From contig OY970230.1 in NCBI GenBank assembly GCA_963714095.1, forward strand, positions 198,206 through 262,205: a DNA stretch of 64,000 bases, given 5' to 3'. Position numbers and translations under genes: made by a program. Below, in pieces: positions 4,941 to 56,807 of this stretch (position 1 is its first letter; each line of letters starts with the position of its first letter). A model generated the notes under the pieces. The model had not been told where the DNA came from. It saw only the letters and a program-made list of their open reading frames with translations, and searched no databases. The stretch comes from Candidatus Gottesmanbacteria bacterium (GTDB lineage Bacteria > Patescibacteriota > Microgenomatia > UBA10105 > UBA927).

Positions 4941-4995
4941 GTTCTTTATTGTCTCGTATTTGCCAGGTACTTGTCAATGGACCGCGGACGGAAGA

Positions 4996-5634: not shown

Positions 5635-5646
5635 ACGTTGAACCCC

Positions 5647-22077: not shown

Positions 22078-22081
22078 GCAT

Positions 22082-26980: not shown

Positions 26981-26983
26981 ATG

Positions 26984-33381: not shown

Positions 33382-34593
33382 ATGAACCGACAACCCTCTC
33401 CCCATTATGCATTTTTAGACGGCCTCAAAGGAATTGCTATTGTCATGATTGTCGCGTTTCACCTACAATTTATATATTCAGGATTTTCCGATTATTTAAG
33501 CAAGCTCCTAGCGTTTAGCGGTGTATGGGTAAATATGTTTTTCGTAATTTCCGCGTTTACCCTCACGGCGAGCGTCTATAATCAGCGTTTATTTAATTTT
33601 TTCCGGTATTTCTATAAACGTTTTCTTCGGATAACACCAGCATATTACGTAATGCTTGTTATTGCGTTTATCGTTATGCCAACTATGGTCAGAACATTTC
33701 TGTGGGGAAATAATATCCAGAATCTATTTCAACACATTCTCTTCATTAACACAGCCCCGTTTAATCATACCAATCAAGTTTCAATTCTGGGAGTGGAATG
33801 GTATATACCGGTACAATTTTGGCTCTATCTTGTCATACCATTTATCGTAATCACCCTTAGGGGAAATGGTATTATATTTTCGGCGCTTTTATTGGTATCG
33901 TTGTTTCTTCATTCAGATAAAAACGCACTCTTCCATTATCAGAATTTTTTTGATTTCGCCTCAAGTATACAGAACTTTCTCTGGGTCTATGTATTTGCTA
34001 TCGGTGCTCAAATGGTGCGTATGAATAAAAAAATTCATCTGTCGTTCTCATCCATTATCACAGGACTGGGAATTCTGGCAGGCTCTGTTTATTTTATTCT
34101 CACTATCCAAACTAAAAGTGAACGGTTCTATATAACTGCATTGATCGTCATGTTATATCAGATCCTCTTGAAAACACGCATTATCCGCCGCGTATCAACA
34201 ACCCATTCCTCGTTGGTACCGATACTCGAACATATTGACGTTCTTATATTATTTATTTTGTTTTATAAATATATCCTGAATTGGTACTTTGTAAAAAACC
34301 CTCATGAATTTATGGCATTCTGGTCAATTGCGCTGGTTATTGCGTCATATGCCCGCCCATGGTTCCTCCAGAAGTTATTGGAAAATCGTGCTGTTGTACT
34401 GCTGGGGAAATATAGTTATGAGATCTATCTCACGCATTTTTTCGTTATTACGGCGGTAGGTTATATTATTCCAAAACAAGGGCCATACATCCGCACGCTC
34501 TACATTCTTCCCATCATCGCCATTCTCTCGTATCTTTTACGCCAATTTGTTTCCAAACCTGCGCTGGATTTATATCCACTCAAAAATCAATAA
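33382..34593 (+). CDS. acyltransferase family 3 membrane protein (OafA/WecH-like O-acyltransferase)
   Basis: FLDGLKGIAIVMIVAFHL opening (conserved His), about 10 TM segments, C-terminal LGKYSYEIYLTHFFV motif. Confidence 0.85.
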   Translation: MNRQPSPHYAFLDGLKGIAIVMIVAFHLQFIYSGFSDYLSKLLAFSGVWVNMFFVISAFTLTASVYNQRLFNFFRYFYKRFLRITPAYYVMLVIAFIVMPTMVRTFLWGNNIQNLFQHILFINTAPFNHTNQVSILGVEWYIPVQFWLYLVIPFIVITLRGNGIIFSALLLVSLFLHSDKNALFHYQNFFDFASSIQNFLWVYVFAIGAQMVRMNKKIHLSFSSIITGLGILAGSVYFILTIQTKSERFYITALIVMLYQILLKTRIIRRVSTTHSSLVPILEHIDVLILFILFYKYILNWYFVKNPHEFMAFWSIALVIASYARPWFLQKLLENRAVVLLGKYSYEIYLTHFFVITAVGYIIPKQGPYIRTLYILPIIAILSYLLRQFVSKPALDLYPLKNQ

Positions 34594-35612
34594 CTTATGT
34601 ATCGTTTCATTACCCTATGATAACCATAACGTACTTCAGAGTATCCGTACGCCATGAGCGTCATGAAACATGCAATAGGATGCAGGAACCATGCGCCTTC
34701 ATGAACCGCAATGTAGCCTCGGATACTCAACGAAAGCGGTTCAATAAATGTCAGTGAATAGATAATAAACAGTAATAAATTTTTCCGGTCTGTGGCAGAA
34801 TGAGGATCGTAGACCAAATAATGACGCTTGGATTTTAACGGATCATAATATCGCCCCTTATACTCAACACGGCGTTTAAGAAATGAGACAATACTCGATC
34901 CTGTATAATGAATTATCGAATTATTAACAGCAGCAAATTCGGTATATCCCTTCTCAACAAGCATCGCAAATGCGTCGGTATGGAGGAAGGTATCAGGATT
35001 CAGATTGACCTTCATTATCAGATCTCTCCGGAACATATGTCCGTTATCACCAAGAGTGGGTAACGTATCCTTTGTATAAGATAAAATTGTATACCCATGT
35101 GTTCGCTTTCGTTCAATTCCTTTATGATATTCCGATTCAAACCGCGGAAGCTTATCGGATTTATCAAGATAGTAAAGAAGAGGGTCATTAATACCGAATA
35201 ACGCACAATATTTTGTAAAGGCGGGCATTGATGCCTCGTACGTATTATATTTACTGAACGCGCAAACGACGTTCCTGTTTTGAACAAACGGTTGAACCAT
35301 CTGTTGTAACCAATTTTTGCTGGGGAGAATATTATCCGGTTCAAGAATCAAAATAAGTTCTCCCCTGGCAAGTTGAATCCCCAGAGATATCCGTACCTGT
35401 GCCTTTTCTAATAAATCTTTTCGTACAACGACGCGTGTATTATATTGTTTAATAAAATCAAGCGTCTCTTTGGGTGAACCGGCGTCCATAACGATATGTT
35501 CGATTTTTGAACAGGGATAATCCTGATTACGAATTGCTGTAAGCATCTTTCTCCATAGAAAAATTGGTGTATTATATGATCCAGTAATAATAGTTATAGA
35601 CGGATGAACCAT
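34587..35612 (-). CDS. glycosyltransferase family 2
   Basis: ITIITGSYNTPIFL...NQDYP...HIVMDAGS...LILEPDN gives a GT-A layout. The 3' end converges on and overlaps 33382..34593 by 7 nt. Confidence 0.8.
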   Translation of the reverse strand: MVHPSITIITGSYNTPIFLWRKMLTAIRNQDYPCSKIEHIVMDAGSPKETLDFIKQYNTRVVVRKDLLEKAQVRISLGIQLARGELILILEPDNILPSKNWLQQMVQPFVQNRNVVCAFSKYNTYEASMPAFTKYCALFGINDPLLYYLDKSDKLPRFESEYHKGIERKRTHGYTILSYTKDTLPTLGDNGHMFRRDLIMKVNLNPDTFLHTDAFAMLVEKGYTEFAAVNNSIIHYTGSSIVSFLKRRVEYKGRYYDPLKSKRHYLVYDPHSATDRKNLLLFIIYSLTFIEPLSLSIRGYIAVHEGAWFLHPIACFMTLMAYGYSEVRYGYHRVMKRYISY

Positions 35613-37773: not shown

Positions 37774-38823
37774 TCAATGTTTTCCTGCATTAAAACACAT
37801 ATCTGACAGAATCTGATCAATAGTATATGTATAATTCCACTTGGGGTAATGTCGTTTAAATTTATTTACATCAGATATATACCAAATATGATCTCCTATC
37901 CGTGGTCTATCAACATATCGAACACGAATTTTTTTGTCAAGTAATTTTTCAACTTTCCGGATTGCTTCAAGAATAGAAATACTGGCATGTCTGGATCCGC
38001 CGATATTGTAAACCTCACCGCTCCTTGGTTTCTTATATACCTCATAAAATGCTCTTATCAGATCCATTGAATGGATATTGTCGCGAACCTGTTTCCCCTT
38101 ATAACCCAGAATAGTATATTCCGTGTCTTCTTTGATGCATTTTACAAGATATGCTAAAAACCCGTGAAGTTTAACTGCGGAATGCATTGGTCCTGTAAGG
38201 CATCCGCCCCTAAACACGGTTGTTTTCAAGCCAAAATATCTTCCGTACTCCTGAACCATAAGATCAGCAGAGGTCTTTGAAACTCCAAAAATACTGTGTG
38301 TTGTATGGTCCAGACTCATCGTTTCATCAATTCCGTTATATAAGTGATGGCTGCGAGGAAGTTCCCATCGTGTTTGTTTTTCAATAAACGGCAGCAGGTT
38401 CGGGCTGTCACCATAAACTTTATTGGTTGAGGTAAATATAAATACCGCTTTCGGACAATATTTTCTGTATTGCTCTAATAAGAGAAGTGTCCCATATGCA
38501 TTAACCGAAAAATCCGTTAATGGTTCTTTTGCTGCCCAATCGTGTGACGGCTGGGCCGCCGTATGTATAATTAAATCAAAGGTATGATGAGAAAATAGAT
38601 TCCGTATTTTTATTTCATCACGTATATCAATTGTATGATGGTGATAATTACTAAATAATTTTATTAATCGTTTTTTGCTCCACGTTGTGTCACCATCTTT
38701 ACCAAAAAAATACGATCGCAGGTTATTATCTATACCATGAACGTCAAAATCTTTTGCACAAAAAAAAGCTACCGCTTCGGATCCAATAAGGCCATTCGAT
38801 CCTGTTATGAGAACTTTTTTCAT
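37774..38823 (-). CDS. NAD-dependent sugar epimerase/dehydratase (extended SDR; possibly CDP-paratose/tyvelose 2-epimerase-like)
   Basis: [18 protein letters not shown] Rossmann motif, [24 protein letters not shown] (YxxxK-type). The subfamily guess rests only on length, overall pattern and the CDP-sugar context. Confidence 0.75.
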
Positions 38824-45010: not shown

Positions 45011-46979
45011 CACGAATAGAAATATCTTTCCATTGACATGTGCCGAGATTCTGTTGAAATATCCGGATACCCTGAAGTTCCTCTCCTGCAAATTGTTCTA
45101 CTGCGCGTGAATCGGGATAGACATTTAGTTCACCGGCAAAATCCGCCGGTTGTTCAGAAAAACGATACCACGTAGTGCCGTCCGAGGAACCAAAAATATA
45201 CGCACTTGCGATAGGGTACGCACATTCGGGCTTAACAAAGTTAAACTCAATTCTTTTCACCCTGTTTTGCTTTTCCATACGCAATTCCAACAGATCAGAC
45301 GCCTTTTCCGTCACCTCAAACTTCTCATTTCTTTCATGGGTCATATCTACGCCGTGCGCAAGATGCAACGGGTCGTTTTTCCATATATACAGAAGCGGAA
45401 CACCATCAATCTGAACCGTATAAACCGGAGTGAGCATATTACGCAGAAAACGCATCCGGAAAAAATCATTGACGTTCAAACCCGGATATGTCAATTCCAT
45501 TACATATTCTCCTTGTTGCGCATAGAGGTCGGAATTCGTACCCACGAGGACTAAATCGTTCCGAAAATAGACCGTTGGAACCGCCGAAAAAATTGCGGTA
45601 CCGAGAGCTATCTTTGATCCGAGTTCGGCATGAGCATTAATCCAAAGAGCTCCCTGTTTATATGCATTTCCATACGTATTATTTGCGCCATCCAAACCAT
45701 ATTTCATGGCGCCGGGTAATCCTCCGATGAGTGCGTTATAATACACGTTTTCGTTCGGATGTAATTGAACCATTGTATAGATAATCGGTATATATCCCGA
45801 AATCGCAATCAGAATAATGATCTGCCGTATCGCCCGCCTTTTTTGCAATCGCATAACATGTTCAACTGCTACTCCACAAAGGAGTGATAAGGGGATCATA
45901 TACTCCATAATTTGACGCAGGCTGCCGCCATATAAATACTCGAGGGGAATTGTTGCCCGACCTACTGTAACAAAAATCCAAAGTAACCAAAGAAAAACCG
46001 CGCTGCTTTTACCGAAAGCATATTTCCAGCCAATAACACTCCCCGTCAAAAAAAACAGAAGCGTCGGAATTGGCATCGACGTGCATAACACTACTATGGT
46101 ATTCCAGTCTGAACAATGCACGAACCAGGGAATCGTACCAAAATAATATCCGCAGCTATTTGCGGCATTGGATACTCCCAAATAATACTGAATTACCTGG
46201 AATGTCTTCTGAATCGGCGATGACCACAATGCCGGATACGATATGAAAAACATCCCATATGCAATAATCGGAATAACGATACAGGAGGTAATAACTATCC
46301 GCCGGAGCGGTTTTTTCTCCCACCACCTCAGGGATATAAACCACGGAATGAGAATAAATACAGAAAATACTATATTGAACTTGGTCCCGAGGGATAATCC
46401 GAAAAAAATTGCCGAAACGAAAACCGGCCAATATTTTTTGTATTCAACGGCGAACCATAGAAAAAATAGCGCACCTGTATAATATGAAGCAACCAACGGA
46501 TCCTTAATATTAAAATGCTGTTCGGCAAACAACAGCGGCAACGTGATTAAGGAACACACCGAAAAAAAAGACGCTACAGGACCAAAAACCAGATATGACC
46601 AGCATCCGACTAGGACGACCATGAAGAGAGTCATAAGCAAAACATACACTTCATAGCTTTCAATATCTCCGACTAATCCAAATTTACCCCACAGAATTCT
46701 GTTTGTTGCCGCCATCAAAATGTCAGAAAGCGGCGGGTGACCAATAGTCATTTTCGTCGTCCATGCCCAATCTAACGGACTATTCTGGTAATAACTTAAC
46801 CTTTTGGATTTGAGATCAGGCTTGTCAGTTTTACCAGTTTCAAAAAATCGTAAATAGATATTTCCCCGGACCAAATGCTGATACGTGTCCCAATTTACAC
46901 CGTAATCGTAGATGGTTTTAAACGATAATACGGAAAAAACCGCGATAAGGAAGAGTGTCGGAAATATTCGCCATTTCAT
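44994..46979 (-). CDS. GT-C-like polytopic glycosyltransferase with ~170-aa C-terminal soluble domain
   Basis: I chose the start at the ATG at 46979, which forms an ATGA overlap with the stop of 46976..47680. First loop YDYGVNWDTYQHLVRGN ... GHPPLSD (ArnT/PMT-like PPL element). More than 12 TM segments. Confidence 0.62.
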   Translation of the reverse strand: MKWRIFPTLFLIAVFSVLSFKTIYDYGVNWDTYQHLVRGNIYLRFFETGKTDKPDLKSKRLSYYQNSPLDWAWTTKMTIGHPPLSDILMAATNRILWGKFGLVGDIESYEVYVLLMTLFMVVLVGCWSYLVFGPVASFFSVCSLITLPLLFAEQHFNIKDPLVASYYTGALFFLWFAVEYKKYWPVFVSAIFFGLSLGTKFNIVFSVFILIPWFISLRWWEKKPLRRIVITSCIVIPIIAYGMFFISYPALWSSPIQKTFQVIQYYLGVSNAANSCGYYFGTIPWFVHCSDWNTIVVLCTSMPIPTLLFFLTGSVIGWKYAFGKSSAVFLWLLWIFVTVGRATIPLEYLYGGSLRQIMEYMIPLSLLCGVAVEHVMRLQKRRAIRQIIILIAISGYIPIIYTMVQLHPNENVYYNALIGGLPGAMKYGLDGANNTYGNAYKQGALWINAHAELGSKIALGTAIFSAVPTVYFRNDLVLVGTNSDLYAQQGEYVMELTYPGLNVNDFFRMRFLRNMLTPVYTVQIDGVPLLYIWKNDPLHLAHGVDMTHERNEKFEVTEKASDLLELRMEKQNRVKRIEFNFVKPECAYPIASAYIFGSSDGTTWYRFSEQPADFAGELNVYPDSRAVEQFAGEELQGIRIFQQNLGTCQWKDISIRVIGFP

Positions 46980-47680
46980 ATTTTTTGCATACAGCAATAA
47001 ATATTGGTAAACCCCCGTTCCTTTTGATATTCCTCGTCCAATTTTCGCTCAAAAAATCGGGCGAAAAATGGGGATCTGCGGAAAATCCATTTTGATATAT
47101 AAAGATTTAAAATCCAGGCTGTTTCCCACCATGCACCGGCACATTGGATTTTAACAATCTTCATGCCTGACCCCCGGACATACGCGATAATCGAACCTAC
47201 CGTATAATGCCTGTGGCCAGTTAACCAAAACGCCGGATCCAATAACGTGCTAATAATAAACCGGTGCGGCGTAGAAATATAACACGCACCACCCCGTTTC
47301 AGTACGCGGGAAATCTCCCGAAACATTATATATTCCGTTCCTTTTGGAATGTGCTCGAGAACTTCCCACGATACGACTGTATCAAACGAACGTTTTGGAA
47401 AAGGTATTACTGTGGCGCTGCCGACGATAAAATGAATTTTTTTGTCATAAATAGACCGCTTCGCCGTACGAAAATCTTCCTCAGTCAACTCAGTTCCCAC
47501 GATAGATCGGACGTTATTTTTTTTCGCAAATACCTCAAACCACCCATACCCGCAGCCGATATCGAGAACTTTTTTATATGTTATATCACCGATCCGTACA
47601 AAAGAAGCCGTAAAACGCAGACGTTCATGAAGCGGAGCATATGGCGATACCTTGGTGATATTTTTCATACAGGGCGACAA
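46976..47680 (-). CDS. class I SAM-dependent methyltransferase
   Basis: Motif I VLDIGCGYGWFE, followed by FDTVVSWEVLEHI and LKRGGACYIST. Confidence 0.85.
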   Translation of the reverse strand: MSPCMKNITKVSPYAPLHERLRFTASFVRIGDITYKKVLDIGCGYGWFEVFAKKNNVRSIVGTELTEEDFRTAKRSIYDKKIHFIVGSATVIPFPKRSFDTVVSWEVLEHIPKGTEYIMFREISRVLKRGGACYISTPHRFIISTLLDPAFWLTGHRHYTVGSIIAYVRGSGMKIVKIQCAGAWWETAWILNLYISKWIFRRSPFFARFFERKLDEEYQKERGFTNIYCCMQKI

Positions 47681-47720
47681 ATAACTCCTTGCTTATACCT
47701 ATGATTCGCACAAAATACCC

Positions 47721-49031
47721 TTATCGCAGGTTTTGTAATCGGAAAAATGATTCCAATGTTTTTTCTATATATCCGATCATTTGAACTGTAATACCGGGCC
47801 AGACTCCTATCCAAAATCCGTAATTCATAACCGTGTCTGAATTTTTCATAGATCCGGAAATACGTATATCTTTTCTACCGATATAGGCGGGGTGACGAAG
47901 AAGGTTTCCGGCAAACAGATTTCGGGTCCCGATGTTATGTTCCTCCAAATACTTGACCAATTCCAGCCGTGTAAATGGCGCAGTATCTTTGACAACCAGC
48001 ATAAATCCGAACCAGCAGGGGTCAGAGACCGGATCCCACTCGGGCAAAATAAAATATTTCTCATATTTTTTGAAAAAATCATATAGAAGGGTGAAATTTC
48101 TCTTACGCTTTTTTATAAATACGGGAAGTTTTTTTAACTGGGCAACGCCGATAGCCGCCTGAAAATCAGTCAGCTTGAGATTGTAACCGATTTGAGAATA
48201 AATATATTTATGATCGTATCCTTTCGGCAGTTCCCCAAGCTGCCAGCCAAAACGCCGTTTGCATGTATTGTCCTTCCCCGTATCGCACCAGCAATCCCTC
48301 CCCCAATCACGGAACTGACGCAGAGCCTTATGAATCAGAGGATTATTCGTCACAATCGCCCCGCCTTCGCCCATGGTAATCTGATGTGCCGGATAAAAAG
48401 AAAAGGTCCCGATATGGCCAAACGTGCTTAACTTTTTGCCCTGATATGTCGATCCGAGCCCGTCGCAGCAATCCTCAATAAACCATAGATTATACTTCAC
48501 TACGAGCCGCATAATGCCCTCTATGGGCAAAGGATTCCCGAGGGTATGTGCAAGCATGATAACCCTTGTTTTCTTCGTTATAGCCTGTTCTATAGCCTCA
48601 CACGTAGGATTTCTTGTCCCCAAATCAACATCTACGAATACCGGCACGCATTTATTCTGAATAATAGGATTAACGGTCGTCGGAAAGGCACACGCTGCGG
48701 CGATGATTTCATCTCCCGGCTTGAGTGCTTTTTTGCCGAATACGGAAGACGTGAGGGCGGTCAATGCCAGCAAGTTGGCGGAAGATCCGGAATTTACCAG
48801 TGTTACGTATCGTATGCCGAGATACGAAGCAAAATTCTTTTCAAACTTTTTGGCAAACTCCCCCTCCGTCCACCACCCGTCCAGCACTGCTTCCGCACCA
48901 CTGAGCAATTCCTGTTGGTCAAACACTTTCCCGGAAACCGGTACTGAAGACTTTCCGGGTTTAAATGGACGGGTGGAATATTTCTGACGTGCGTATGAAC
49001 GAATTAGCCCTGCAATATTTGCTGGCATCAT
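47721..49031 (-). CDS. rfbH: CDP-4-keto-6-deoxy-D-glucose 3-dehydrase (E1; RfbH/DdhC/AscC type, PMP and [2Fe-2S] dependent)
   Basis: DegT-family fold, but the Schiff-base Lys is replaced by His: FYPAHQITMGEGG, with H216 at nt 48384-48386 (checked; codon CAT). Cys189, Cys247, Cys249 and Cys257 give exactly C-X57-C-X1-C-X7-C. RfbH-type N-terminus PVSGKVFDQQELLSGAEAVLDGWWTEG. Confidence 0.9.
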   Translation of the reverse strand: MMPANIAGLIRSYARQKYSTRPFKPGKSSVPVSGKVFDQQELLSGAEAVLDGWWTEGEFAKKFEKNFASYLGIRYVTLVNSGSSANLLALTALTSSVFGKKALKPGDEIIAAACAFPTTVNPIIQNKCVPVFVDVDLGTRNPTCEAIEQAITKKTRVIMLAHTLGNPLPIEGIMRLVVKYNLWFIEDCCDGLGSTYQGKKLSTFGHIGTFSFYPAHQITMGEGGAIVTNNPLIHKALRQFRDWGRDCWCDTGKDNTCKRRFGWQLGELPKGYDHKYIYSQIGYNLKLTDFQAAIGVAQLKKLPVFIKKRKRNFTLLYDFFKKYEKYFILPEWDPVSDPCWFGFMLVVKDTAPFTRLELVKYLEEHNIGTRNLFAGNLLRHPAYIGRKDIRISGSMKNSDTVMNYGFWIGVWPGITVQMIGYIEKTLESFFRLQNLR

Positions 49032-49954
49032 ATATTTTTCTTCAAAATCGACTGAATTGTTTCTATAATTTGGTTGACAGTCAAACCGTTGGCCTCTCTC
49101 ATATATTCCTGCAAACCCATACCTTTCGTAAACCTATCGGGTACACCGATTCGCCTGAAAGGAATTGCATTACCGTGTTCCGCGAGTATTTCCGATACTG
49201 CGCTTCCTAATCCTCCGATTACACTGTGTTCCTCCAAAGTAAATATCGCTTTCGTGTATTTTGCGGAATCCAAAATCAATTGCTGATCTATGGGTTTTAT
49301 TGTATGCATACTGATCAACCGTCCCTGCATTCCCTGAATGGCAAGTTTCTCAACCACATCTATACCGCGTGCGACAAGCGTTGATGTTGCAATAAGACAA
49401 TAGTCCTTTCCTTTCCTCAGGATAATACCCTTACCAATTTTAAAATGCGGCGGCTTATCATACAAACGAGGTTCTCCGGCTTTCCCGATCCGCAGATAGA
49501 CGGGACCTTTGTGCATCAAGGCGGCCCGCGTCGCTAGCTCCGCCTCTATCGGATCTGCCGGGCAGACTATTGTCATGTTCGGGAGGGTTCGCATTATACC
49601 GATATCTTCCAGACTATGATGTGTATGTCCGTAGGGACCGTATGCGAATCCCGCCCCAACACCGACAATTTTAACATTCAAATTTTGATAGCAAATATCA
49701 TTCCTCACCTGTTCAAAATTCCGCATGGTAACAAACGGAATAATAGAATAGATAATAGGAATTTTTCCCTCAAGCGCCATACCCGCCGCGACCCCTGTCA
49801 TGTTCTGCTCGGCAATCCCCATATTAATATATTGCCGGGGCACCTCATGAATATACTTTTCAAAAACGGAATATCCCAAATCTCCTGTAAGCAGGATGAT
49901 CCGTCTATCTTGTTTTGCCAACTGAAGTATCGTTTTCGTAAATGCTATTCTCAT
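49028..49954 (-). CDS. transketolase, C-terminal (pyrimidine-binding/C-domain) subunit
   Basis: MGIAEQNMTGVAAGMALEGKIP and HHSLEDIGIMRTLPNMTIVCPADP are typical of split transketolase subunit B. ATGA overlap with the rfbH start. Confidence 0.9.
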   Translation of the reverse strand: MRIAFTKTILQLAKQDRRIILLTGDLGYSVFEKYIHEVPRQYINMGIAEQNMTGVAAGMALEGKIPIIYSIIPFVTMRNFEQVRNDICYQNLNVKIVGVGAGFAYGPYGHTHHSLEDIGIMRTLPNMTIVCPADPIEAELATRAALMHKGPVYLRIGKAGEPRLYDKPPHFKIGKGIILRKGKDYCLIATSTLVARGIDVVEKLAIQGMQGRLISMHTIKPIDQQLILDSAKYTKAIFTLEEHSVIGGLGSAVSEILAEHGNAIPFRRIGVPDRFTKGMGLQEYMREANGLTVNQIIETIQSILKKNI

Positions 49955-50796
49955 ACTGCTTCCAAATCCTTTAATGCTTTATCAAACTCCTTTTCCGTCG
50001 GAGCTTTATACTGGGACGAAACTGTGCCTATATACCTGGCTACACCCCCAAGACCTTTTATCGTATGAGCGATAATTACCGATGGCTTTCCGTTTCGGAA
50101 TGGAAGAGTTCTAAACGTTTGGATAACTTTCTTAATATTATGCCCGTCTACCTCCGCGACTTCCCAATCAAAACTTTGCCATTTTTCTTTCAACGGTTCC
50201 AGATCTAACACATCTTTGGTGAATCCGAAGCCCTGCAGCTTATTATAATCGACGATAGCAATAAGGTTATCCAGCTTATGATATCCGGCAAACAATATAG
50301 CTTCCCATGTAGAACCTTCATCACATTCACCGTCGGACAGTACAGCGAATACTCGATAAGCCTTTTTATCCTGTTTCCCTACCCACGCCATTCCTGCAGC
50401 CATGGGTAACCCGTGGCCCAGAGAACCGGACGAAATTTCAATACCCGCGATACCTCGTACCGAATGTCCCGGCAATAATCCGCCGTCATGCTCATAGCCT
50501 TTCAACAGTTTTTTATCAAAGAAGCCACGTTCTGCAAGTACGGCATACAGAGCTTTAGCGTCATGCGCTTTGCTGAATACCAGCCTGTCCCGACGTGGAT
50601 TCACCGGATCGCCGGGATATACCTTCATTATCCGAAAATACAACGCTACCAAAATTTCCACACACGATAGCGCGCCGCCCGTATGTGCACTCTGAGCCAG
50701 ATAGCTCATCGTCAGAATATCCCGACGGATATCTCTTGCAATAGTTTCTAACGTTTTTCTTTTACTACGGGTAATTGTTCTCATCTTCAGTATCAA
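49951..50796 (-). CDS. transketolase, N-terminal (ThDP-binding) subunit
   Basis: SAHTGGALSCVEIL, SKAHDAKALYAVLAERG, and the ThDP/Mg motif VLSDGECDEGSTWEAILFAGYHKLDNLIAIVDYN. Confidence 0.9.
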   Translation of the reverse strand: MILKMRTITRSKRKTLETIARDIRRDILTMSYLAQSAHTGGALSCVEILVALYFRIMKVYPGDPVNPRRDRLVFSKAHDAKALYAVLAERGFFDKKLLKGYEHDGGLLPGHSVRGIAGIEISSGSLGHGLPMAAGMAWVGKQDKKAYRVFAVLSDGECDEGSTWEAILFAGYHKLDNLIAIVDYNKLQGFGFTKDVLDLEPLKEKWQSFDWEVAEVDGHNIKKVIQTFRTLPFRNGKPSVIIAHTIKGLGGVARYIGTVSSQYKAPTEKEFDKALKDLEAV

Positions 50797-50921
50797 TATA
50801 ATAATTATTTATCGTTTTACGCATGATCAACCTCACTATACTTTTTTAAACCCTGCATTCGTTTCAGAAACATTTTCCTCTTCGTTCTATCAGGGGATGC
50901 ACGCTTCTCTGCTTTTCTTCG
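50797..50921. promoter_or_regulatory. intergenic gap inside the CDP-sugar cassette, possible internal promoter
   Basis: 125-nt spacer between the aminotransferase and the transketolase genes. On the transcribed strand it ends in an AT-rich stretch with TATTAT/TATATT-like boxes just upstream of 50796. No convincing -35 found. Confidence 0.2.
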
Positions 50922-52034
50922 TTACCGATATCGAATAAGTTTTGTGAGCTTCTCACAAATGAATGCAACGTCCGATTCTGTTATATCGGCGGCAGACGGC
51001 AGGTTGAATCCATATTTCTCTACTTTTGCGGCTTCAGGATTAGGGAATCGGCGCTCGTACATGGGAAATCCGCTCATCCGGGGAAACGCGACCCTTCCAT
51101 GAATATTCCATCGTTCCAATTTACTTACCAAATCCTTATTGGATATTTTTTTTGAAGTGAGTAAAGCGGAGGGATATGCGTAATTACTGCGGCATCCGGG
51201 CCTTTCTTTAATGAGTTTTAATTCATGTACATCTTTCAGCCGTGAGTAATACCAGCCGAATATTCTCCGTTTTTTTGCAACGAGTTCTTCTATGCGCTCG
51301 ACCTGAGCAAGCGCCAGGGCTGCTGTCACATTTGCCATTTGATATTCATATCCCAGTGAATCACACCAAAAATTGAATTTCCTATTCGTTCTGCCCATGT
51401 TACTGAAAAGAATAGCTTTATCAAGGTATGCCTTATTATTTGTAATAAACATCCCGCCTTCACCAGAAACGGCGATTTTTGCCCCATGAAATGAATAGGC
51501 GCCGACGTCACCGAACGTGCCCACTTTCTTTCCTTTATATAAGGAGCCGAGCGAAGGAGCCGCATCTTCAATAACTTTAAGTTTATACTTTCCGGCAATT
51601 CGCATTATTTCATCCATTTCCGCCGGATGCCCGAAGGTATGAACGAGCATAATACCTTTCGTCTTTTTTGTAATTGCGCGTTCTACGGCTTTGGGATCAA
51701 TACACCATGTATCAGGATCAATATCAACAAATACAGGAGTTGCACCCGTATATGCGATCACGTGAGCGGTTGCGGCCCAACTGGTATCCACACATATTAC
51801 CTCGTCACCTTTTTGAAAACCGCAGACCAAACATGCAAGATGGAGTGAATGTGTTGCACAAAAACCGGCTAAAGAATACTTCGCACCGGTATAGTCACAC
51901 ATACGTTTTTCTAGTTTCTTTATATGCTTGTCAAATGTTGAGTACCACCCTGTCTTAACAGCATCGACAACATAATCAACTTCTTTTTGAGTCATCGATG
52001 GACCTGCAAAACTAATCCTTTTATATTTTTTCAT
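50922..52034 (-). CDS. DegT/DnrJ/EryC1/StrS-family NDP-sugar aminotransferase (PLP-dependent)
   Basis: Retains the catalytic Lys: AYSFHGAKIAVSGEGGMFITN. Length 370 aa. Confidence 0.9.
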   Translation of the reverse strand: MKKYKRISFAGPSMTQKEVDYVVDAVKTGWYSTFDKHIKKLEKRMCDYTGAKYSLAGFCATHSLHLACLVCGFQKGDEVICVDTSWAATAHVIAYTGATPVFVDIDPDTWCIDPKAVERAITKKTKGIMLVHTFGHPAEMDEIMRIAGKYKLKVIEDAAPSLGSLYKGKKVGTFGDVGAYSFHGAKIAVSGEGGMFITNNKAYLDKAILFSNMGRTNRKFNFWCDSLGYEYQMANVTAALALAQVERIEELVAKKRRIFGWYYSRLKDVHELKLIKERPGCRSNYAYPSALLTSKKISNKDLVSKLERWNIHGRVAFPRMSGFPMYERRFPNPEAAKVEKYGFNLPSAADITESDVAFICEKLTKLIRYR

Positions 52035-52719
52035 ACGGTAATTTCATAACTACACTATATCGTTTTATTGTTCCTTTATAACCTTTGGGTGCATTTTGCC
52101 ATTCAATTCTATCAGATTTAACAATCCTGATCATGGGCGTCCGTTTCACTTCAGTAAAATCAAGCTTTCGGTAAAGGCGAATGGCTCTTATATTATCAGA
52201 CGTTGTAGACAGCATATACGTTTTAATTCCAAATTCAACCCTGCCCCAACATATCATATGACGTATCGCATCTTCTATAATTCCGGGGTATAAATTCACA
52301 CCACGCACAATATTATCTATTTCGCAGATACGTTTTTGAAAATTAAAACGATACAAGCCGATATGACCGATGTACCGGTTTTTTACTTTTATCATAAATA
52401 AAATCCTGTCGGGTTCATTCACAACTTTATCGCGCAACCATTTTTCGGTTCCTTCCAAGGTAACCGGGAATATTGCAGGAAACCATTGCTCATGCTTTTT
52501 TCTCCATAACGCGAGTAGTTTAATAATTTTTTTATCAGTTCTCTGGTTGTCCGTAACGAGAACTAAATAATAACGAATTTTTCTAAAAATTATTTTAATT
52601 TGTAATTTTTTTCCGTGTTTAAGCAATGAAATTTTGTCTTTCACCAAACTGCTGATATCTCGCTCCGTTAATTTCATAATCAACCTAATGCTCTGTCTTT
52701 TATTCTTTCGATATATCAA
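52021..52719 (-). CDS. GNAT-family N-acetyltransferase (PseH/WecD-like sugar N-acyltransferase candidate)
   Basis: IGHIGLYRFNFQKRICEIDNIVRG ... AIRLYRKLDFTEV has a GNAT-like core. Overlaps the aminotransferase start by 14 nt. Confidence 0.6.
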   Translation of the reverse strand: MIYRKNKRQSIRLIMKLTERDISSLVKDKISLLKHGKKLQIKIIFRKIRYYLVLVTDNQRTDKKIIKLLALWRKKHEQWFPAIFPVTLEGTEKWLRDKVVNEPDRILFMIKVKNRYIGHIGLYRFNFQKRICEIDNIVRGVNLYPGIIEDAIRHMICWGRVEFGIKTYMLSTTSDNIRAIRLYRKLDFTEVKRTPMIRIVKSDRIEWQNAPKGYKGTIKRYSVVMKLPYEKI

Positions 52720-52723
52720 CTAA

Positions 52724-53686
52724 TTATTTCAAGATAGAATTATACCAGCGGCGGATTAAAGGAAGTGTGTTTTTAATCGAATATGTAGGTCTCCATCCCA
52801 GATTGATAATCTTCCCTGCATTCAAATGCTGGTACGGAATTTCGTTCTTCGCCGAGTTTTCTATAACATACGGTATTTTTCTTTTTAGTATCCTTTCTGT
52901 TTGCCTGATGAGAGCTATCACTGAACACGAGTCGCTGGAGGATAAATTAAATGCCTCCCCATTAGTTTTATCTCTATGTTCAAGAAGGAACAAATAGCCG
53001 GATACTACATCTTCAACGTAAATATAGTCCCGGACATATGAACCGTCACTTCGAATAACCAATTTTTCTTTCGTGACAACTGCTTTCATTATTCCCGGAA
53101 TAATCCGTGAAAAATTCAGATCACCTTCTCCGTAAATATTTCCTGCCCGTGTAACGACGATAGGCAAATGGTATGTTTTTGCGTATGCGTGTGCGAGAAG
53201 ATCCGTTGCCGATTTAGAAACCTCATATGGATGGTCGCCTCTCAAAGGATCCGTCTCGATATAGGGTTTCCTGCTTTTTCCGTAGCTTTTATCAGACGAT
53301 GCAACAATGACTCCTTTCACATGAGTAAAAAGTCGTGCCGCATCGAGAATATAGGTGGTACCCATGATATTAGTTTCAATTGTTTCCACGGGATTTTCGT
53401 AGGCAGTAGGCACTATTGCCTGAGCGGCTAAGTGGAAAATATAGTCAATTTCATATTTTGACACGATATCAAAAACCCGATCTTTATCTTTAAGGTCACA
53501 TGAAACAAGAACGGTATTTTTTGATAACCGTTCGGTCATGAAATATGAACGGGGGTCTAATGATCGAAACGGCACAAATACCGTTGCATGCCTCCCTAGT
53601 AAGGCTTTCACAAGATGACTTCCAACAAACCCCGTTCCGCCTGTGACCAGAATGTTCTTTCCTGTTAATCTTTCCATATTTTCCAT
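52724..53686 (-). CDS. NDP-hexose 4,6-dehydratase, CDP-glucose 4,6-dehydratase (RfbG)-like
   Basis: ILVTGGTGFVGSHL, PYEVSKSATDLL (YxxxK), and TRAGNIYGEGDLNFSRIIPGIMKA resembling the RfbG RAGNVIGGGD...R.iP element. It sits next to rfbF. It is shorter (320 aa) than the classical RfbG. Confidence 0.65.
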   Translation of the reverse strand: MENMERLTGKNILVTGGTGFVGSHLVKALLGRHATVFVPFRSLDPRSYFMTERLSKNTVLVSCDLKDKDRVFDIVSKYEIDYIFHLAAQAIVPTAYENPVETIETNIMGTTYILDAARLFTHVKGVIVASSDKSYGKSRKPYIETDPLRGDHPYEVSKSATDLLAHAYAKTYHLPIVVTRAGNIYGEGDLNFSRIIPGIMKAVVTKEKLVIRSDGSYVRDYIYVEDVVSGYLFLLEHRDKTNGEAFNLSSSDSCSVIALIRQTERILKRKIPYVIENSAKNEIPYQHLNAGKIINLGWRPTYSIKNTLPLIRRWYNSILK

Positions 53687-54441
53687 TCAGGATTCCGTTT
53701 CCATAATGTATTAAGACGTTCCAAATCCGCATATGTATCCATCGATTGCCAAAAACCTTTATGGACAAAAAGAGATAGCTCCCGGTCTTTAACAAGCCTT
53801 TTTAGTGCCTCATGTTCATATTCAGCCGGCCGCAGATAATTAAAAAACTTTTTATCAAATACCATAAATCCGCCGTTTACCCAATCCTGTAAAACAGGTT
53901 TTTCGACAAACTCCGTTACCCTGTGTTTAACATTTTGCCGGACCATTCCGTATTTACTTTTCGGATACACGCCAGTTATGGTACCGATTGTTTTTTGTTT
54001 TCTGTGAAACTGAACTAATTGCCGGATATTGATATTAGACACACCGTCCCCGTACGTAACCATAAAATCTTTATCAGTTTTCGGGATATAATCTTTTACA
54101 CGTATTATTCTTTCACCCGGAAGTGTCCCCTCTCCCGTATCTACAAAGGTAATTTTGAAATTATCGGCGGCAGATGGGTTTTTATGAAAAATCGCTGAGC
54201 CGGATTTTGTGGATAACGTAAAATTTTGTGAAAAATATTTTTGATTTAAAAAATACTCCTTAATCATATCCCCCTTATACCCGAGGGCAATGATAAAATC
54301 ATTAAACCCGTAGTACGCATACATTTTCATGATATGCCACAGGATTGGTTTATTGCCGACCAACACCATGGGTTTTGGTTTAAACTCTGTTTCCTCCTTT
54401 AATCTGTATCCTATACCGCCACATAAAATAATCGTCTTCAT
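53665..54441 (-). CDS. rfbF: glucose-1-phosphate cytidylyltransferase
   Basis: MKTIILCGGIGYRLKEETEFKPKPMVLVGNKPILWHIMKMYAYYGFNDFIIALGYKG is the canonical RfbF N-terminus. Length 258 aa. Confidence 0.92.
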   Translation of the reverse strand: MKTIILCGGIGYRLKEETEFKPKPMVLVGNKPILWHIMKMYAYYGFNDFIIALGYKGDMIKEYFLNQKYFSQNFTLSTKSGSAIFHKNPSAADNFKITFVDTGEGTLPGERIIRVKDYIPKTDKDFMVTYGDGVSNINIRQLVQFHRKQKTIGTITGVYPKSKYGMVRQNVKHRVTEFVEKPVLQDWVNGGFMVFDKKFFNYLRPAEYEHEALKRLVKDRELSLFVHKGFWQSMDTYADLERLNTLWKRNPEWKIWKD

Positions 54442-55616: not shown

Positions 55617-56807
55617 CTATTTATGTCCGGCAGTAAATACCTTTATGATTGTTTGGATTTCTCCAGTCGTCAGTTCCGGATTATTGCCAAAATATAATCC
55701 TTGTTCATGTATGAGCTTCACGTTGACGCATTCGCGGAAATTACCCTTCACGTATTTGGTAAAAAACGGTTGTTCTGTCATATCGCCGCCGACAACCGGC
55801 CTGATTTCAATCCTGTTACCGCAGGCCTTTACTAACGAATCCCGGATTGCGGTTGATTTGCATATAACGGGCACGGCAAAATTTGAAATTGTATCCATGT
55901 GATCATATCGTATAGGATAGTAATCCGGCGACTGATAAATTCTTCCGGCAATTTTTTTAAAATTATTCTGCCGTTTCTTAATTATTTCAGGGAGAAATTT
56001 AATTTGAATTTGTCCTAGATACCCGGTAATTTCCGTCGGACGGAAATTATACCCTAAATCATAGAACGTATACCGCCCATAAAACGACGGGTTTGCAAGA
56101 AATTTTCTCCGGGCCGTCTGTTCCGGAACTGACAGATTTCTATCCCAACCGTGAGCCCGCACCATGATGAGCATACTCGCGAGATCACTGTTATCTGTAC
56201 AAACCGCACCTCCTTCGACTGTTGACATGTGGTGTCCAACGTAAAACGAAAATGTACCTGCCTCTCCGAAATTACCGAGTTTTTTGGCATGATAAACAGA
56301 TCCCAGAGATTCACAGTTGTCTTCTACGAACAGCATGCCGCGTTTATTGCAGAGATCCATAACTTTATCAATATCGTCACATAATCCGAGAAGGTTTGTA
56401 AGGAGAAGTGCTTTTAGTTTATACCTAGCTAATGTGTTTAACAGGGTTCTACTGGATACATTCAGGGTGTCTAGTTCCACGTCAACTGGTACCGGCTTCA
56501 GACCCAACTGAATAAGCGGCATAACGTTGGTAGACCATGTGACGGCGGAAAATCCGACCATGTCTCCTTTGTGAATTTTACCTAGATTAAGAAGGGCCTG
56601 AATAAGCGCTAAATTTGCGGAACTGCCGCTGTTGAGCAATACACAGTATTTTTTCCCCTGCCAGAAAGCAAATTGTTTCTCAAATGCTTCGCACTCCTTA
56701 CCGAAACTTAACTGTTTGGCGACCAATAAAAATTGGATCAGCTTCCGTTTTGTTTCGTTTTCTTTATAAAATGTCGATTTTATAAGTGTAATCATGTTAA
56801 TGAACAA
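55617..56807 (-). CDS. ColD-like NDP-4-keto-6-deoxyhexose 3-dehydratase (DegT fold, His replaces catalytic Lys)
   Basis: GTFSFYVGHHMSTVEGGAVCTDN (H192 at the Lys position, nt 56232-56234), EDNCESLGSVY, VRAHGWDRNL, IEIRPVVGG and GLYFGNNP. These closely parallel the ColD sequence as I remember it. There is no Fe-S Cys motif. Confidence 0.78.
   Translation of the reverse strand: MFINMITLIKSTFYKENETKRKLIQFLLVAKQLSFGKECEAFEKQFAFWQGKKYCVLLNSGSSANLALIQALLNLGKIHKGDMVGFSAVTWSTNVMPLIQLGLKPVPVDVELDTLNVSSRTLLNTLARYKLKALLLTNLLGLCDDIDKVMDLCNKRGMLFVEDNCESLGSVYHAKKLGNFGEAGTFSFYVGHHMSTVEGGAVCTDNSDLASMLIMVRAHGWDRNLSVPEQTARRKFLANPSFYGRYTFYDLGYNFRPTEITGYLGQIQIKFLPEIIKKRQNNFKKIAGRIYQSPDYYPIRYDHMDTISNFAVPVICKSTAIRDSLVKACGNRIEIRPVVGGDMTEQPFFTKYVKGNFRECVNVKLIHEQGLYFGNNPELTTGEIQTIIKVFTAGHK

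Follow-up and report, generated by a model that had tools for sequence, protein, structure and literature searches.

A CDP-sugar cassette with a split transketolase in Candidatus Gottesmanbacteria: a candidate pathway to a branched, N-acylated amino sugar

Which sugar is made by a gene cassette that combines the enzymes for a CDP-activated dideoxyhexose with an aminotransferase, an N-acyltransferase and a split transketolase? Such a cassette is found on contig OY970230.1 of Candidatus Gottesmanbacteria bacterium (assembly GCA_963714095.1). The window that was analysed comprises 64,000 nt (positions 198,206-262,205 of the forward strand), and coordinates below refer to this window.

Gene order and CDP-sugar enzymes

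The eight minus-strand ORFs described in an earlier note were all found at their positions (46976..54441). The note had also claimed that stops and starts mostly overlap, and this applies to four of the seven junctions (overlaps of 22, 14, 4 and 4 nt); at the other three, the genes are 4, 125 and 40 nt apart. The 22 nt overlap joins rfbF to the 4,6-dehydratase gene, and the gene for the C-terminal transketolase subunit overlaps each of its neighbours by 4 nt. The 125 nt gap (50797..50921) between the aminotransferase and the N-terminal transketolase subunit contains no terminator-like site on the coding (minus) strand, and promoter-like and terminator-like matches across the region are no more numerous than expected from shuffled sequence. 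As the genes on its two sides have different closest relatives among the loci surveyed below (L006 for the aminotransferase and the GNAT, L086 and L087 for the transketolase), this gap is probably the junction of two modules with different ancestry.

The family assignments made in the earlier note hold. The RfbF/DdhA-like glucose-1-phosphate cytidylyltransferase (53665..54441; Pfam NTP_transferase) matches TIGR02623 over its full length with 272.8 bits, just below the curated cut-off of 300.25, and its orthologs in related cassettes are 61-71% identical. For the adjacent SDR (52724..53686), the top NCBIfam model is that of CDP-glucose 4,6-dehydratase (TIGR02622, 189.5 bits, which is below the cut-off of 278), as compared to 169 bits for the dTDP-glucose dehydratase model. 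The top PDB match, 1rkx, is also a CDP-glucose 4,6-dehydratase, and in the alignment with it the S-D-K and YxxxK motifs of CDP-type dehydratases are kept. The protein is probably an RfbG/DdhB-like CDP-glucose 4,6-dehydratase, which would make CDP-4-keto-6-deoxyglucose.

The sequence leaves no doubt about the identity of E1 (RfbH/DdhC/AscC; 47721..49031), which reaches 650.5 bits with NF011936 (cut-off 423) and 521 bits, over its full length, with E1 from Yersinia (3bcx). It has His in place of Lys and has kept the four Fe-S cysteines (in EDCCD, DCWC and NTCK), a signature that is seen in all E1 orthologs of the related loci. As a CDP-6-deoxy-L-threo-D-glycero-4-hexulose 3-dehydrase, it would remove the C3 hydroxyl. 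These gene identities support a pathway that starts from CDP-glucose and runs via the E1 product CDP-4-keto-3,6-dideoxyglucose, as had been suggested. Pfam scans of the window, which covered the ORFs of at least 200 aa in 25-64 kb and ten ORFs in 1-25 kb, detected no E3 reductase, and tblastn with the Fre-like reductase of locus L011 gave no match anywhere in the window.

A non-canonical split transketolase

The transketolase consists of an N-terminal (ThDP/PP-domain) subunit (49951..50796; Pfam Transketolase_N, 112 bits) and a C-terminal subunit with Pyr and C domains (49028..49954; Pfam Transket_pyr and Transketolase_C). According to the residue numbering of E. coli TktA, the N subunit is unchanged at D155 and N185, which ligate Mg/ThDP, and at H26, H66 and H100 in the donor site, while H261 is replaced by Gln. 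The C subunit has kept E411 and H473 and carries the exchanges H461G, D469Y and R520K. In canonical transketolases, the phosphate of the substrate and the 2-hydroxyl of the acceptor are bound by H461, D469 and R520. The window enzyme belongs to a non-canonical clade (H461G, D469Y/L/A, R520K), while the canonical split transketolases of the same survey have kept H461 and R520. Its N subunit is 64-71% identical to those of L036, L086 and L087, where the gene order is identical.

It is very improbable that this enzyme is an ordinary pentose-phosphate transketolase which lies in a glycan locus by chance, so that only RfbF, the dehydratase, the GNAT, the aminotransferase and E1 make up the cassette. 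Split transketolases do exist as housekeeping enzymes, and the best solved match of the C subunit is one from Carboxydothermus (6yaj, 244 bits), but the phosphate- and 2-hydroxyl-binding residues are altered, the C subunit gene shares its 4 nt start/stop overlap with the E1 gene, and the order N subunit, C subunit, E1 recurs in gammaproteobacterial locus L036 (58-67% identity). In addition, a transketolase-centred survey yielded 15 clade members whose flanks extend for 3 kb or more on either side, and 13 of them lie within 3.5 kb of an SDR (9) or a DegT aminotransferase (6), as opposed to none of the 12 canonical split transketolases.

We propose instead, from residue pattern and gene context, that the split transketolase is a C-branching ligase acting on a CDP-4-ketosugar. 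Since it has kept H26, H66, H100 and H473, whereas positions 100 and 261 are both Phe in Dxs, a hydroxylated C2 donor would be favoured. According to a 2025 review (PMC12247030), no split transketolase has been shown to branch a ketosugar in vitro.

The aminotransferase and its partners in other genomes

The DegT-family PLP aminotransferase (50922..52034; Pfam DegT, 330 bits) has kept the catalytic Lys (SFHGAKIA), and its orthologs from different phyla are 57-73% identical. Its best NCBIfam models (LegC family, with 303 bits against a cut-off of 420, PseC, ArnB and others) are named for 4-amino sugars. Among the solved structures (7b0m, 237 bits; perosamine synthetase, 231 bits), the closest relatives that are named by function are perosamine synthetases. 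Perosamine synthetases, LegC-family and PseC enzymes aminate ring C4. The GNAT N-acyltransferase (52021..52719) is a weak match to Pfam Acetyltransf_3 (E=4e-9), has PseH as its only curated match (24 bits), and showed no close solved relative in the PDB comparison. Another gene caller places its start 14 codons later (L001), and the true start is likely near 52677. We propose that the GNAT N-acylates an amino sugar. The earlier view is supported in that the end product would carry an acylated amino group and would not be a dideoxyhexose that has been reduced or epimerised.

A survey that was centred on the aminotransferase, and is unbiased as to the ligase, yielded 36 loci with orthologs (at least 44% identity) and 44 loci with more distant homologs. 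A ThDP ligase occurs in 29 of the 36 loci (23 YerE-like enzymes and 7 split transketolases, with both types in L019) and in none of the 44. The GNAT is present in 27 ortholog loci and again in none of the 44, while RfbF and the dehydratase accompany 23 of the 36 orthologs. E1 is found together with an aminotransferase ortholog in 23 loci, and 21 of these code for a ThDP-dependent C-C ligase, either of YerE/acetolactate-synthase type or a split transketolase; none is encoded in L011 or in L023, the latter being truncated. The earlier note had treated the transketolase as an optional extra, but no partner accompanies this aminotransferase clade more constantly than a ThDP ligase.

The block that had been delimited in the window was thus found in other genomes with respect to RfbF, the dehydratase, the GNAT, the aminotransferase, the ThDP ligase and E1, though not the methyltransferase. 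It occurs in Patescibacteria, Micrarchaeota, Bacillota, Bacteroidota, Chloroflexota, Ignavibacteria and Gammaproteobacteria; in nearly all loci E3 is not encoded. The YerE-like partner matches 5ahk and 8rph, which we take to be PpYerE and JanthE, with 408 and 345 bits, the best other chain named acetolactate synthase reaching 330 bits. In eight loci, the YerE-like gene is preceded by a 4-hydroxy-2-oxovalerate aldolase gene, which is adjoined by an acetaldehyde dehydrogenase homolog, as is also the case in the erwiniose cluster (PMC9306805). Locus L022 is a compact operon with a single GT2 (RfbF-SDR-YerE-like-GNAT-aminotransferase-E1-GT2). In L093 (RfbF-SDR-SDR-N subunit-C subunit-E1-GT), the same cassette has a second SDR in place of GNAT and aminotransferase. 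The window cassette has one SDR only, and tblastn with four SDR queries detected no second SDR beside the compact Bacillota-type operons with ligase and aminotransferase.

Site of amination and the predicted sugar

In the best reading, to which we give about an even chance, the cassette specifies a yersiniose-type pathway to an acyl-branched CDP-3,6-dideoxyhexose in which the branch reductase has been replaced by an aminotransferase and an N-acyltransferase. As the ligase uses up the 4-ketone on which E1 depends, the branch ketone alone remains, and a single linear pathway which uses all enzymes must therefore place the amination on this new ketone. We propose that the aminotransferase acts on the keto group in the side branch at C4; the rival site is C4 of the ring. 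In yersiniose A synthesis, YerE acts on the E1 product, CDP-4-keto-3,6-dideoxyglucose (PMC9306805), and a branch ketone that is "transaminated (kibdelomycin)" is listed in a review (PMC12247030).

Other observations argue against the branched product. On the 15 kb contig of L011, which was read completely, RfbF, an SDR, E1 with an adjacent Fre-like reductase, the GNAT and the aminotransferase (59% identity) are encoded without a ThDP ligase, and the sole ketone available is ring C4. In L010, L012 and L013, GNAT and aminotransferase occur with radical-SAM enzymes and lack both E1 and ligase. The naming of aminotransferase relatives for 4-amino sugars and the missing E3 point in the same direction. 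In addition, the aminotransferase tree does not track the ligase type (the nearest relative is from L006, a YerE-plus-aldolase locus), which is easier to understand if the substrate of the aminotransferase does not depend on the ligase, and the presence of both types in L019 implies that the ligases are not strictly interchangeable. A live, though less likely, rival is that ring C4 is aminated, as the earlier note had favoured, and that the GNAT then yields a CDP-4-acylamido-3,4,6-trideoxyhexose, the transketolase making a parallel, unreduced 4-C-acyl sugar or having another role. L011 has exactly the gene set for this, plus the flavin reductase, and the nearest named relatives of both enzymes, including PseH for the GNAT, fit. 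In a sister clade of aminotransferase homologs, RfbF and a dehydratase are the only partners, which suggests that the ancestral enzyme aminated CDP-sugars at C4. A comparable dTDP route is that to forosamine, in which the C4 aminotransferase SpnR acts after the E1 homolog SpnQ. However, minimal loci with E1, aminotransferase and GNAT should then be common, but only one was found among 22 evaluable loci. Furthermore, the ligase product would be left without a reductase, compact operons with a single GT2, such as L022, would have to make two sugars, and the proximity of the clade transketolases to SDR or DegT genes would be unexplained. With a ligase in nearly all loci that combine E1 and aminotransferase, ring-C4 amination is no longer the leading reading.

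A single sugar might also be made in another order or by other chemistry, e.g. with the ligase acting first on CDP-4-keto-6-deoxyglucose and E1 on a branch ketimine, or with the ThDP enzyme and the aminotransferase building a non-sugar amino-ketone for later attachment. We regard this as rather improbable. It would suit L007 and L008, where an aminotransferase of 69-70% identity occurs in the order ALDH-aldolase-YerE-like-aminotransferase-class I aminotransferase-radical SAM and no sugar-nucleotide genes are found within 10 kb. The variable partners of aminotransferase and GNAT (radical SAM, class I aminotransferase) and the general lack of E3 would fit as well. However, a canonical substrate of E1 is favoured by its high similarity to the Yersinia enzyme and its unchanged cofactor ligands, most of the ortholog loci also encode RfbF and the dehydratase, and DegT enzymes are known to act on sugar-nucleotide or inosose ketones.

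Several further genes on the minus strand may be related to the cassette. The class I SAM methyltransferase (46976..47680; Pfam Methyltransf_11/25) has no ortholog in 14 related loci (E<=1e-15, at least 60% coverage); looser thresholds gave matches at 29-34% only, in L015, L086, L090 and L121, and the corresponding position in L036 is taken by an FkbM-type methyltransferase. By these comparisons, it is an accessory gene and not a conserved cassette member. The SDR at 37774..38823 has two CDP-tyvelose 2-epimerases as its best PDB matches (9rl0, 135 bits; 1orr, 123 bits). It is 73% and 67% identical to genes from L036 and L086, which both have the same cassette, and it possibly epimerises C2 of a CDP-sugar from this system. 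A GT2 glycosyltransferase (34587..35612; Pfam Glycos_transf_2) is 44% identical to the in-cassette GT2 of L036, which is flanked by the genes for the GNAT and the N subunit of the transketolase, and 50% identical to a GT2 directly after the GNAT in L089; it is a candidate transferase of the cassette sugar. A second His-type sugar 3-dehydratase is encoded at 55617..56807. It matches ColD (2gms) with 210 bits, its FYVGHHMST aligns with the catalytic His of ColD, and it has neither the CWC motif nor the Fe-S cysteines. A His-type dehydratase without Fe-S cysteines also adjoins the transketolase in L086, L087 and L090, where it replaces E1. The ColD-like enzyme may act in the same pathway or in a second dideoxy-sugar pathway.

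In the branched pathway, as we infer it in its substrates, step order, C2 donor and amination site, RfbF would provide CDP-glucose, the SDR would dehydrate it to CDP-4-keto-6-deoxyglucose, and E1 would strip the C3 hydroxyl to give CDP-4-keto-3,6-dideoxyglucose, with electrons from a housekeeping reductase, as no E3 is encoded in the cassette. The split transketolase would then join a ThDP-bound C2 unit, probably glycolaldehyde, to the C4 ketone, leaving a tertiary alcohol and an exocyclic ketone in a hydroxyacetyl branch. This branch ketone would be converted to an amine by the DegT aminotransferase and acylated by the GNAT, the 2-epimerase-like SDR and the methyltransferase may modify the sugar, and the GT2 would probably transfer it. 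While in Yersinia YerE ligates and YerF reduces the branch, here a split transketolase would be the ligase, and aminotransferase and GNAT would take the place of the reduction.

Gene content of the cassette and the proposed pathway

All eight minus-strand ORFs which the earlier note had described for positions 46976-54441 could be located there, and profile searches upheld their family assignments. The cytidylyltransferase RfbF (53665-54441) matches the glucose-1-phosphate cytidylyltransferase equivalog TIGR02623 over its full length with 272.8 bits, the curated cut-off being 300.25. The following SDR (52724-53686) is a candidate CDP-glucose 4,6-dehydratase with TIGR02622 as best model (189.5 bits; cut-off 278). 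Aligned to the Yersinia enzyme 1rkx, it keeps the Ser-Asp-Lys and Tyr-xxx-Lys motifs, its nucleotide specificity being unreadable from the sequence. The GNAT (52021-52719) gave a weak profile match and a close solved relative was not found. The DegT aminotransferase (50922-52034) matches Pfam PF01041 with 330 bits, and its PLP lysine, in the motif SFHGAKIA, aligns with that of solved DegT/DnrJ/EryC1 members, the best solved matches being 7b0m and perosamine synthetase. The split transketolase is encoded in two halves (49951-50796 and 49028-49954). E1 (47721-49031) reaches 650.5 bits to NF011936 (cut-off 423) and 521 bits to 3bcx; with the PLP lysine changed to His and the [2Fe-2S] cysteines conserved, its assignment is clear at the level of sequence. 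A class I methyltransferase (46976-47680) completes the set.

Stops and starts had been said to overlap for the most part, which is true of four junctions out of seven; there is a 4-nt overlap between the two transketolase subunits and another 4-nt overlap with E1. The 125-nt gap had been named as a possible split of the operon; a terminator-like site is absent from its coding strand. Promoter and terminator scans over 44.9-57 kb returned counts equal to the shuffled expectation, from which co-transcription is not decidable.

Every substrate assignment in the cassette is drawn from homology and gene context. On these grounds we see an even chance that the cassette encodes a yersiniose-type pathway leading to a CDP-3,6-dideoxy-4-C-(1-acylamino-2-hydroxyethyl)hexose. 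Yersiniose A of Yersinia pseudotuberculosis (DdhA-D/AscA-D, YerE, YerF) is likewise made from CDP-glucose by a 4,6-dehydratase, E1 and a ThDP-dependent ligase acting at C4 (PMC9306805, PMC12247030). YerE ligates pyruvate to the E1 product CDP-4-keto-3,6-dideoxyglucose, and YerF reduces the branch to give yersiniose A (PMC9306805). RfbF, the dehydratase and E1 of the window are homologs of enzymes of this pathway. In contrast, the ligase of the window is a split transketolase and not an acetolactate-synthase-like flavoprotein such as YerE, and it probably uses a hydroxylated C2 donor instead of pyruvate. A YerF-type reductase is lacking, the only SDR inside the cassette being the 4,6-dehydratase candidate, and the aminotransferase and the GNAT hold that slot. 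Nor was E3 (DdhD/AscD), which belongs to the yersiniose A set, found among the window ORFs scanned.

We propose that the split transketolase takes the role of YerE by acting as a ligase on CDP-4-keto-3,6-dideoxyglucose, while the aminotransferase together with the GNAT would take that of YerF. E1 needs the 4-ketone and the ligase uses it up, so that the aminotransferase would be left with the exocyclic ketone, provided that one sugar serves all enzymes. For the N-acetyl form of the CDP-sugar, an [M-H]- of 633.12 is predicted.

With the pathways to abequose, paratose, tyvelose and ascarylose the window shares RfbF, a candidate RfbG and E1, and it also codes for an SDR resembling the CDP-tyvelose 2-epimerase. 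Unlike these classical 3,6-dideoxyhexose pathways, the cassette has neither E3 nor a 4-reductase or 5-epimerase. The classical set is found in the neighbour locus L002, where an RmlC-like gene and an SDR lie beside E1.

The E3 domains Fer2, FAD_binding_6 and NAD_binding_1 were not found among the ORFs scanned (those of at least 200 aa at 25-64 kb and ten at 1-25 kb). E3 is missing generally across the related loci, and a flavin reductase occurs beside E1 only in locus L011, where a 238-aa Fre-like NAD(P)H-flavin reductase (5545-6261) directly follows E1; none of the other loci examined showed it, and as a tblastn query it gave zero matches across the whole window. E3 normally carries a [2Fe-2S] domain too, and the Fre-like reductase is possibly a minimal stand-in. 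The absence of E3 from these loci requires one to postulate a housekeeping electron donor, as for the E1 homolog SpnQ.

The earlier note had also considered a methylation step. At the threshold used, the methyltransferase has no ortholog in any of the 14 related loci compared, and in locus L036 an FkbM-type enzyme occupies its position. The gene is treated as accessory and outside the cassette proper. A public contig (L001), retrieved by exact look-up of the 435-aa form of E1 (the 436-aa form gave no match), shows the same cassette with an identical E1; this otherwise identical contig differs in the methyltransferase region. There, positions 6666-7184 are 96% identical to the window ORF at 46976-47680, the called product having 172 aa and the window ORF 234 aa, and the adjacent gene is also called differently.

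The split transketolase and its clade

A scan of metagenome contigs with the C-terminal transketolase subunit yielded 80 loci, and 75 pairs of N- and C-terminal subunits were aligned to E. coli TktA, which provides the residue numbers, and to Dxs. The canonical split group (24 in this survey) retains H461 and R520 throughout, with Asp, Ala or Gly at position 469. A second split group (40) has Gly461, Tyr, Leu or Ala at position 469 and usually Lys520; the cofactor residues (D155, N185, E411) and the donor-site histidines (H26, H66, H100, H473) are unchanged in this group. The window transketolase shows G461, Y469 and K520 together with H261Q; R358 and S385 are kept, and compared to E. coli TktA the ThDP/Mg residues D155 and N185 and the catalytic glutamate E411 are intact. 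In transketolases, H461, R520, R358 and S385 hold the substrate phosphate and D469 reads the 2-hydroxyl of the acceptor. With phosphate and 2-hydroxyl residues changed, enzymes of the second group should no longer use sugar-phosphate acceptors. Their donor site still seems suited to a C2 unit carrying a hydroxyl; in Dxs, whose donor is pyruvate, positions 100 and 261 are Phe.

The comparison of gene context was confined to loci extending 3 kb or more to either side. In 13 of 15 loci of the second group, a DegT aminotransferase (6 loci) or an SDR (9 loci) lies within 3.5 kb, two of these loci having both, and such a neighbour was found in none of the 12 loci of the canonical split group. Locus L093 has the gene order RfbF-SDR-SDR-TKN-TKC-E1-GT (TKN and TKC being the transketolase subunits), so that a second SDR stands where the window has the GNAT and the aminotransferase, and the same is seen in L102. 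A 333-aa gene following E1 in L093 was considered as E3 and is in fact a glycosyltransferase-like protein. The transketolase is encoded together with genes for CDP-4-keto-3,6-dideoxyglucose also in L036, L093, L099, L102, L118 and L130. The closest relatives of the window transketolase (68-71%) are found in L086 and L087, where the adjoining dehydratase is of the His type and lacks the Fe-S cysteines.

Distant DegT proteins (29-37%) are encoded directly upstream of split transketolases of the G461 type in L137 (8071-11662), which is a capsule-type polysaccharide locus without E1, and in L107, L115, L126, L134, L144 and L147. The pairing of aminotransferase and transketolase is thus broader than the CDP-3,6-dideoxyhexose context.

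For miharamycin and amipurimycin, split-gene transketolases have only been proposed, the two-subunit enzyme moving a hydroxyacetyl group to a keto sugar in this proposal, as in ours for the window; they are uncharacterised in vitro, and all 13 known candidates are from Streptomycetes (PMC12247030). In contrast to these, the clade of the window transketolase occurs in Patescibacteria, Micrarchaeota, Ignavibacteria, Gammaproteobacteria and many metagenomes, beside E1 and RfbF.

Recurrence of the cassette and the site of amination

A search for the same gene block in other genomes had been suggested, and the cassette does recur. A scan with the aminotransferase, using one genome per GTDB species, gave 80 loci, which were scored by tblastn with proteins of the window and of related loci. 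An aminotransferase at least 44% identical is present in 36 loci from Patescibacteria, Micrarchaeota, Bacillota, Bacteroidota, Chloroflexota, Ignavibacteria, Deltaproteobacteria and Gammaproteobacteria. These loci frequently contain a GNAT (27 of 36), RfbF (23 of 36) and a true E1 (23 of 36), and 29 code for a ThDP-dependent C-C ligase. Of the 44 loci whose aminotransferase homologs are more distant, not one showed a ligase, an E1 or the GNAT. Among the distant homologs, those of L038, L040, L048, L051, L053 and L061 (34-40%) are accompanied by RfbF and dehydratase only, with E1, ligase and GNAT all absent; these loci may encode a route to a CDP-4-amino-4,6-dideoxyhexose, and a CDP-linked amino sugar pathway of this kind would in turn be uncommon.

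In 7 of the loci a split transketolase is the ligase, in 23 a TPP_enzyme_N/M/C protein; L019 has both, which weakens the notion of a strict substitution of one family by the other. The latter, YerE-like protein (588-600 aa) is encoded close to the aminotransferase, and in compact operons between dehydratase and GNAT. It scores 408 bits to 5ahk and 345 bits to 8rph, which we take to be PpYerE and JanthE, compared to 330 bits to the best other chain named acetolactate synthase. Cultured Bacillota with full genome sequences, namely Caproiciproducens sp. R1 (CP194790) and Sinanaerobacter chloroacetimidivorans BAD-6, carry this version of the cassette, so that the sugar chemistry is directly testable. 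In L019, from Roizmanbacteria, two copies of E1 (64% and 60% to that of the window) share one 897-aa frame (4325-7000, minus strand), which looks like a tandem E1-E1 fusion.

In eight loci (L006, L007, L008, L016, L018, L019, L030, L037) a gene for 4-hydroxy-2-oxovalerate aldolase lies ahead of the YerE-like gene, and a homolog of acetaldehyde dehydrogenase adjoins it. This is the donor-making pair described for erwiniose, whose cluster ranks with those of caryophyllose and gastriose among the closest known systems (ErwE/ErwF/ErwI/ErwJ; MMAR_2332; MygE), and in erwiniose and caryophyllose longer branches are built in the same way as in yersiniose (PMC9306805). While clusters of the erwiniose type finish with an NAD(P)H reductase, the relatives of the window finish with the aminotransferase, usually together with a GNAT. 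The window itself contains neither an aldolase nor a YerE-like gene.

The earlier note had placed the amination at ring C4, giving a CDP-activated N-acyl-4-amino-3,4,6-trideoxyhexose, a product which we consider rather unlikely. Its closest precedent is dTDP-forosamine, where SpnQ works without a dedicated E3 and the DegT aminotransferase SpnR then acts at C4; the forosamine pathway differs in being dTDP-linked, in its 2-deoxygenated substrate, in the N,N-dimethylated amine and in having no ThDP ligase. Homology favours ring C4, the position aminated by perosamine synthetase and the other solved and curated relatives of the aminotransferase that are named by function. Genomic context favours the ligase product: among the loci with both E1 and the aminotransferase, 21 of 23 have a ligase. 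One of the two exceptions, L023, ends just upstream of its GNAT. The other, L011, is a fully read 15-kb contig with a cassette-like arrangement (RfbF, dehydratase, E1, Fre-like reductase, GNAT, class I aminotransferase, the aminotransferase homolog with 59% identity, GT2, GtrA-like, GT87) without any ligase, and thus speaks for amination at C4. So do L010, L012 and L013, in which the GNAT-aminotransferase pair (at about 7.5-12.6 kb in each) is flanked by radical SAM/SPASM enzymes and E1 and ligase are absent; in the tree their aminotransferases group tightly in a single subclade. NCBIfam identifies the 386-387-aa genes of L010 and L011, considered as alpha-oxoamine synthases, as ordinary class I aminotransferases, and the 350/318-aa pairs of L010 and L012, considered as pyruvate-dehydrogenase-type ligases, are in fact GT2s.

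Phylogeny also offers some support for amination at C4. In a neighbour-joining tree the aminotransferase clades are independent of ligase type, with an RfbF-only clade between two ligase-associated ones. The window itself is a mosaic: aminotransferase and GNAT are closest to those of L006, which has YerE and the aldolase, the transketolase to those of L086 and L087, and E1 to those of L003 and L089, with the 125-nt gap as the junction of mosaic parts. In L007 and L008, where sugar-nucleotide genes are lacking within 10 kb, the aminotransferase adjoins a YerE-like enzyme, which ties it to the ligase, yet leaves room for other chemistry. The order in L008 (6206-15720), also seen in L007, is acetaldehyde dehydrogenase, aldolase, YerE-like enzyme, aminotransferase (70%), class I aminotransferase, radical SAM protein and AIR-synthase-related protein.

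Amination of the branch ketone, as in the yersiniose-type pathway proposed here, has one precedent. Branch ketones can be reduced, methylated, oxidised 'or transaminated (kibdelomycin)', and kibdelomycin (KbDH-alpha/beta), with its ThDP-installed acetyl branch, is the sole such case listed (PMC12247030). It differs from the window in being an actinomycete secondary metabolite outside the CDP-3,6-dideoxyhexose pathway, with the branch at C3 and an alpha-keto acid dehydrogenase-type ThDP ligase, while the window cassette belongs to a cell-surface glycan locus.

Apparently connected genes and a possible surface-sugar family

From about 5.6 to 64 kb, the window consists mostly of minus-strand genes for glycan synthesis (GT2, GT4, GT-C, flippase, acyltransferases), and the closest E1 homologs are from the Microgenomates group and other Patescibacteria. 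The region also codes for several PMT_2/GT-C-like membrane proteins. Very large proteins with at best weak family matches are encoded, for example, at 28669-31629 (986 aa, weak match to DUF5667 only) and 25121-28726 (no family match).

Three genes, all on the minus strand and beyond the range of the earlier note, appear to be connected to the cassette. Two genes upstream of rfbF, a ColD-like sugar 3-dehydratase of the His type (55617-56807; 210 bits to 2gms) lacks the Fe-S cysteines. In the Nealsonbacteria loci L002 and L004, an SDR and then a methyltransferase come after its 65% ortholog. The enzyme could provide an E3-independent 3-deoxygenation or be part of a second dideoxy sugar. An SDR resembling CDP-tyvelose 2-epimerase (37774-38823; 135 bits to 9rl0), 9 kb downstream of the cassette, has homologs in L036 (73%) and L086 (67%), both of which carry the same cassette, and it may epimerise a CDP-sugar at C2. 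About 11 kb downstream, a GT2 glycosyltransferase (34587-35612) has orthologs inside the cassette in L036 and L089 (44-50% identity), and is likely the transferase for the sugar of the cassette. A mannose-1-phosphate guanylyltransferase-like gene (5647-6729) and two GDP-mannose-dehydratase-like SDRs (19900-20910, 21133-22116), also on the minus strand, suggest that the window encodes a GDP-sugar pathway as well, and this pathway could supply the ColD-like enzyme with its substrate.

ThDP-branched CDP-3,6-dideoxyhexoses are already known as a kind of pathway, and there is one known case, an antibiotic, of a branch ketone being transaminated. In the literature searched we found neither the combination of branching and branch transamination in surface-glycan loci across many phyla nor a non-canonical split-transketolase clade acting as ligase; the in-silico survey of branching ThDP enzymes by Krug et al. 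2024 may overlap with this result. Nothing relevant turned up on CDP-glucose together with transketolase, on CDP-4-amino sugars or on 4-amino-3,4,6-trideoxyhexoses, the last search possibly having been spoiled by its commas.

Somewhat tentatively, we suggest that 3,6-dideoxyhexoses with a 4-C-(1-acylamino-alkyl) branch form a widespread, as yet undescribed family of surface sugars, the window version of which would provide the first natural split transketolases that branch a nucleotide ketosugar. Such sugars would be made via E1, a ThDP ligase, branch transamination and N-acylation, the branch in the window being 4-C-(1-acylamino-2-hydroxyethyl). The branching transketolases would be recognisable by H461G, D469Y and R520K, and their range would take in CPR bacteria, DPANN archaea and several other phyla. 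Transketolase activity on ketosugars is unproven and is valued as a route to functionalised tertiary alcohols (PMC12247030). If our reading is correct, these enzymes would be the first non-actinomycete candidates for ketone-accepting transketolases, and a sequence signature together with a gene-context rule would allow more of them to be found. The pathway would have a ligase slot that is filled by unrelated ThDP families and a branch-ketone slot that is filled either by a reductase or by an aminotransferase with an acyltransferase. Branched amino sugars of a new class would thereby join the known surface glycans of bacteria and archaea, including those of Patescibacteria and Micrarchaeota, lineages whose envelopes are almost uncharacterised.
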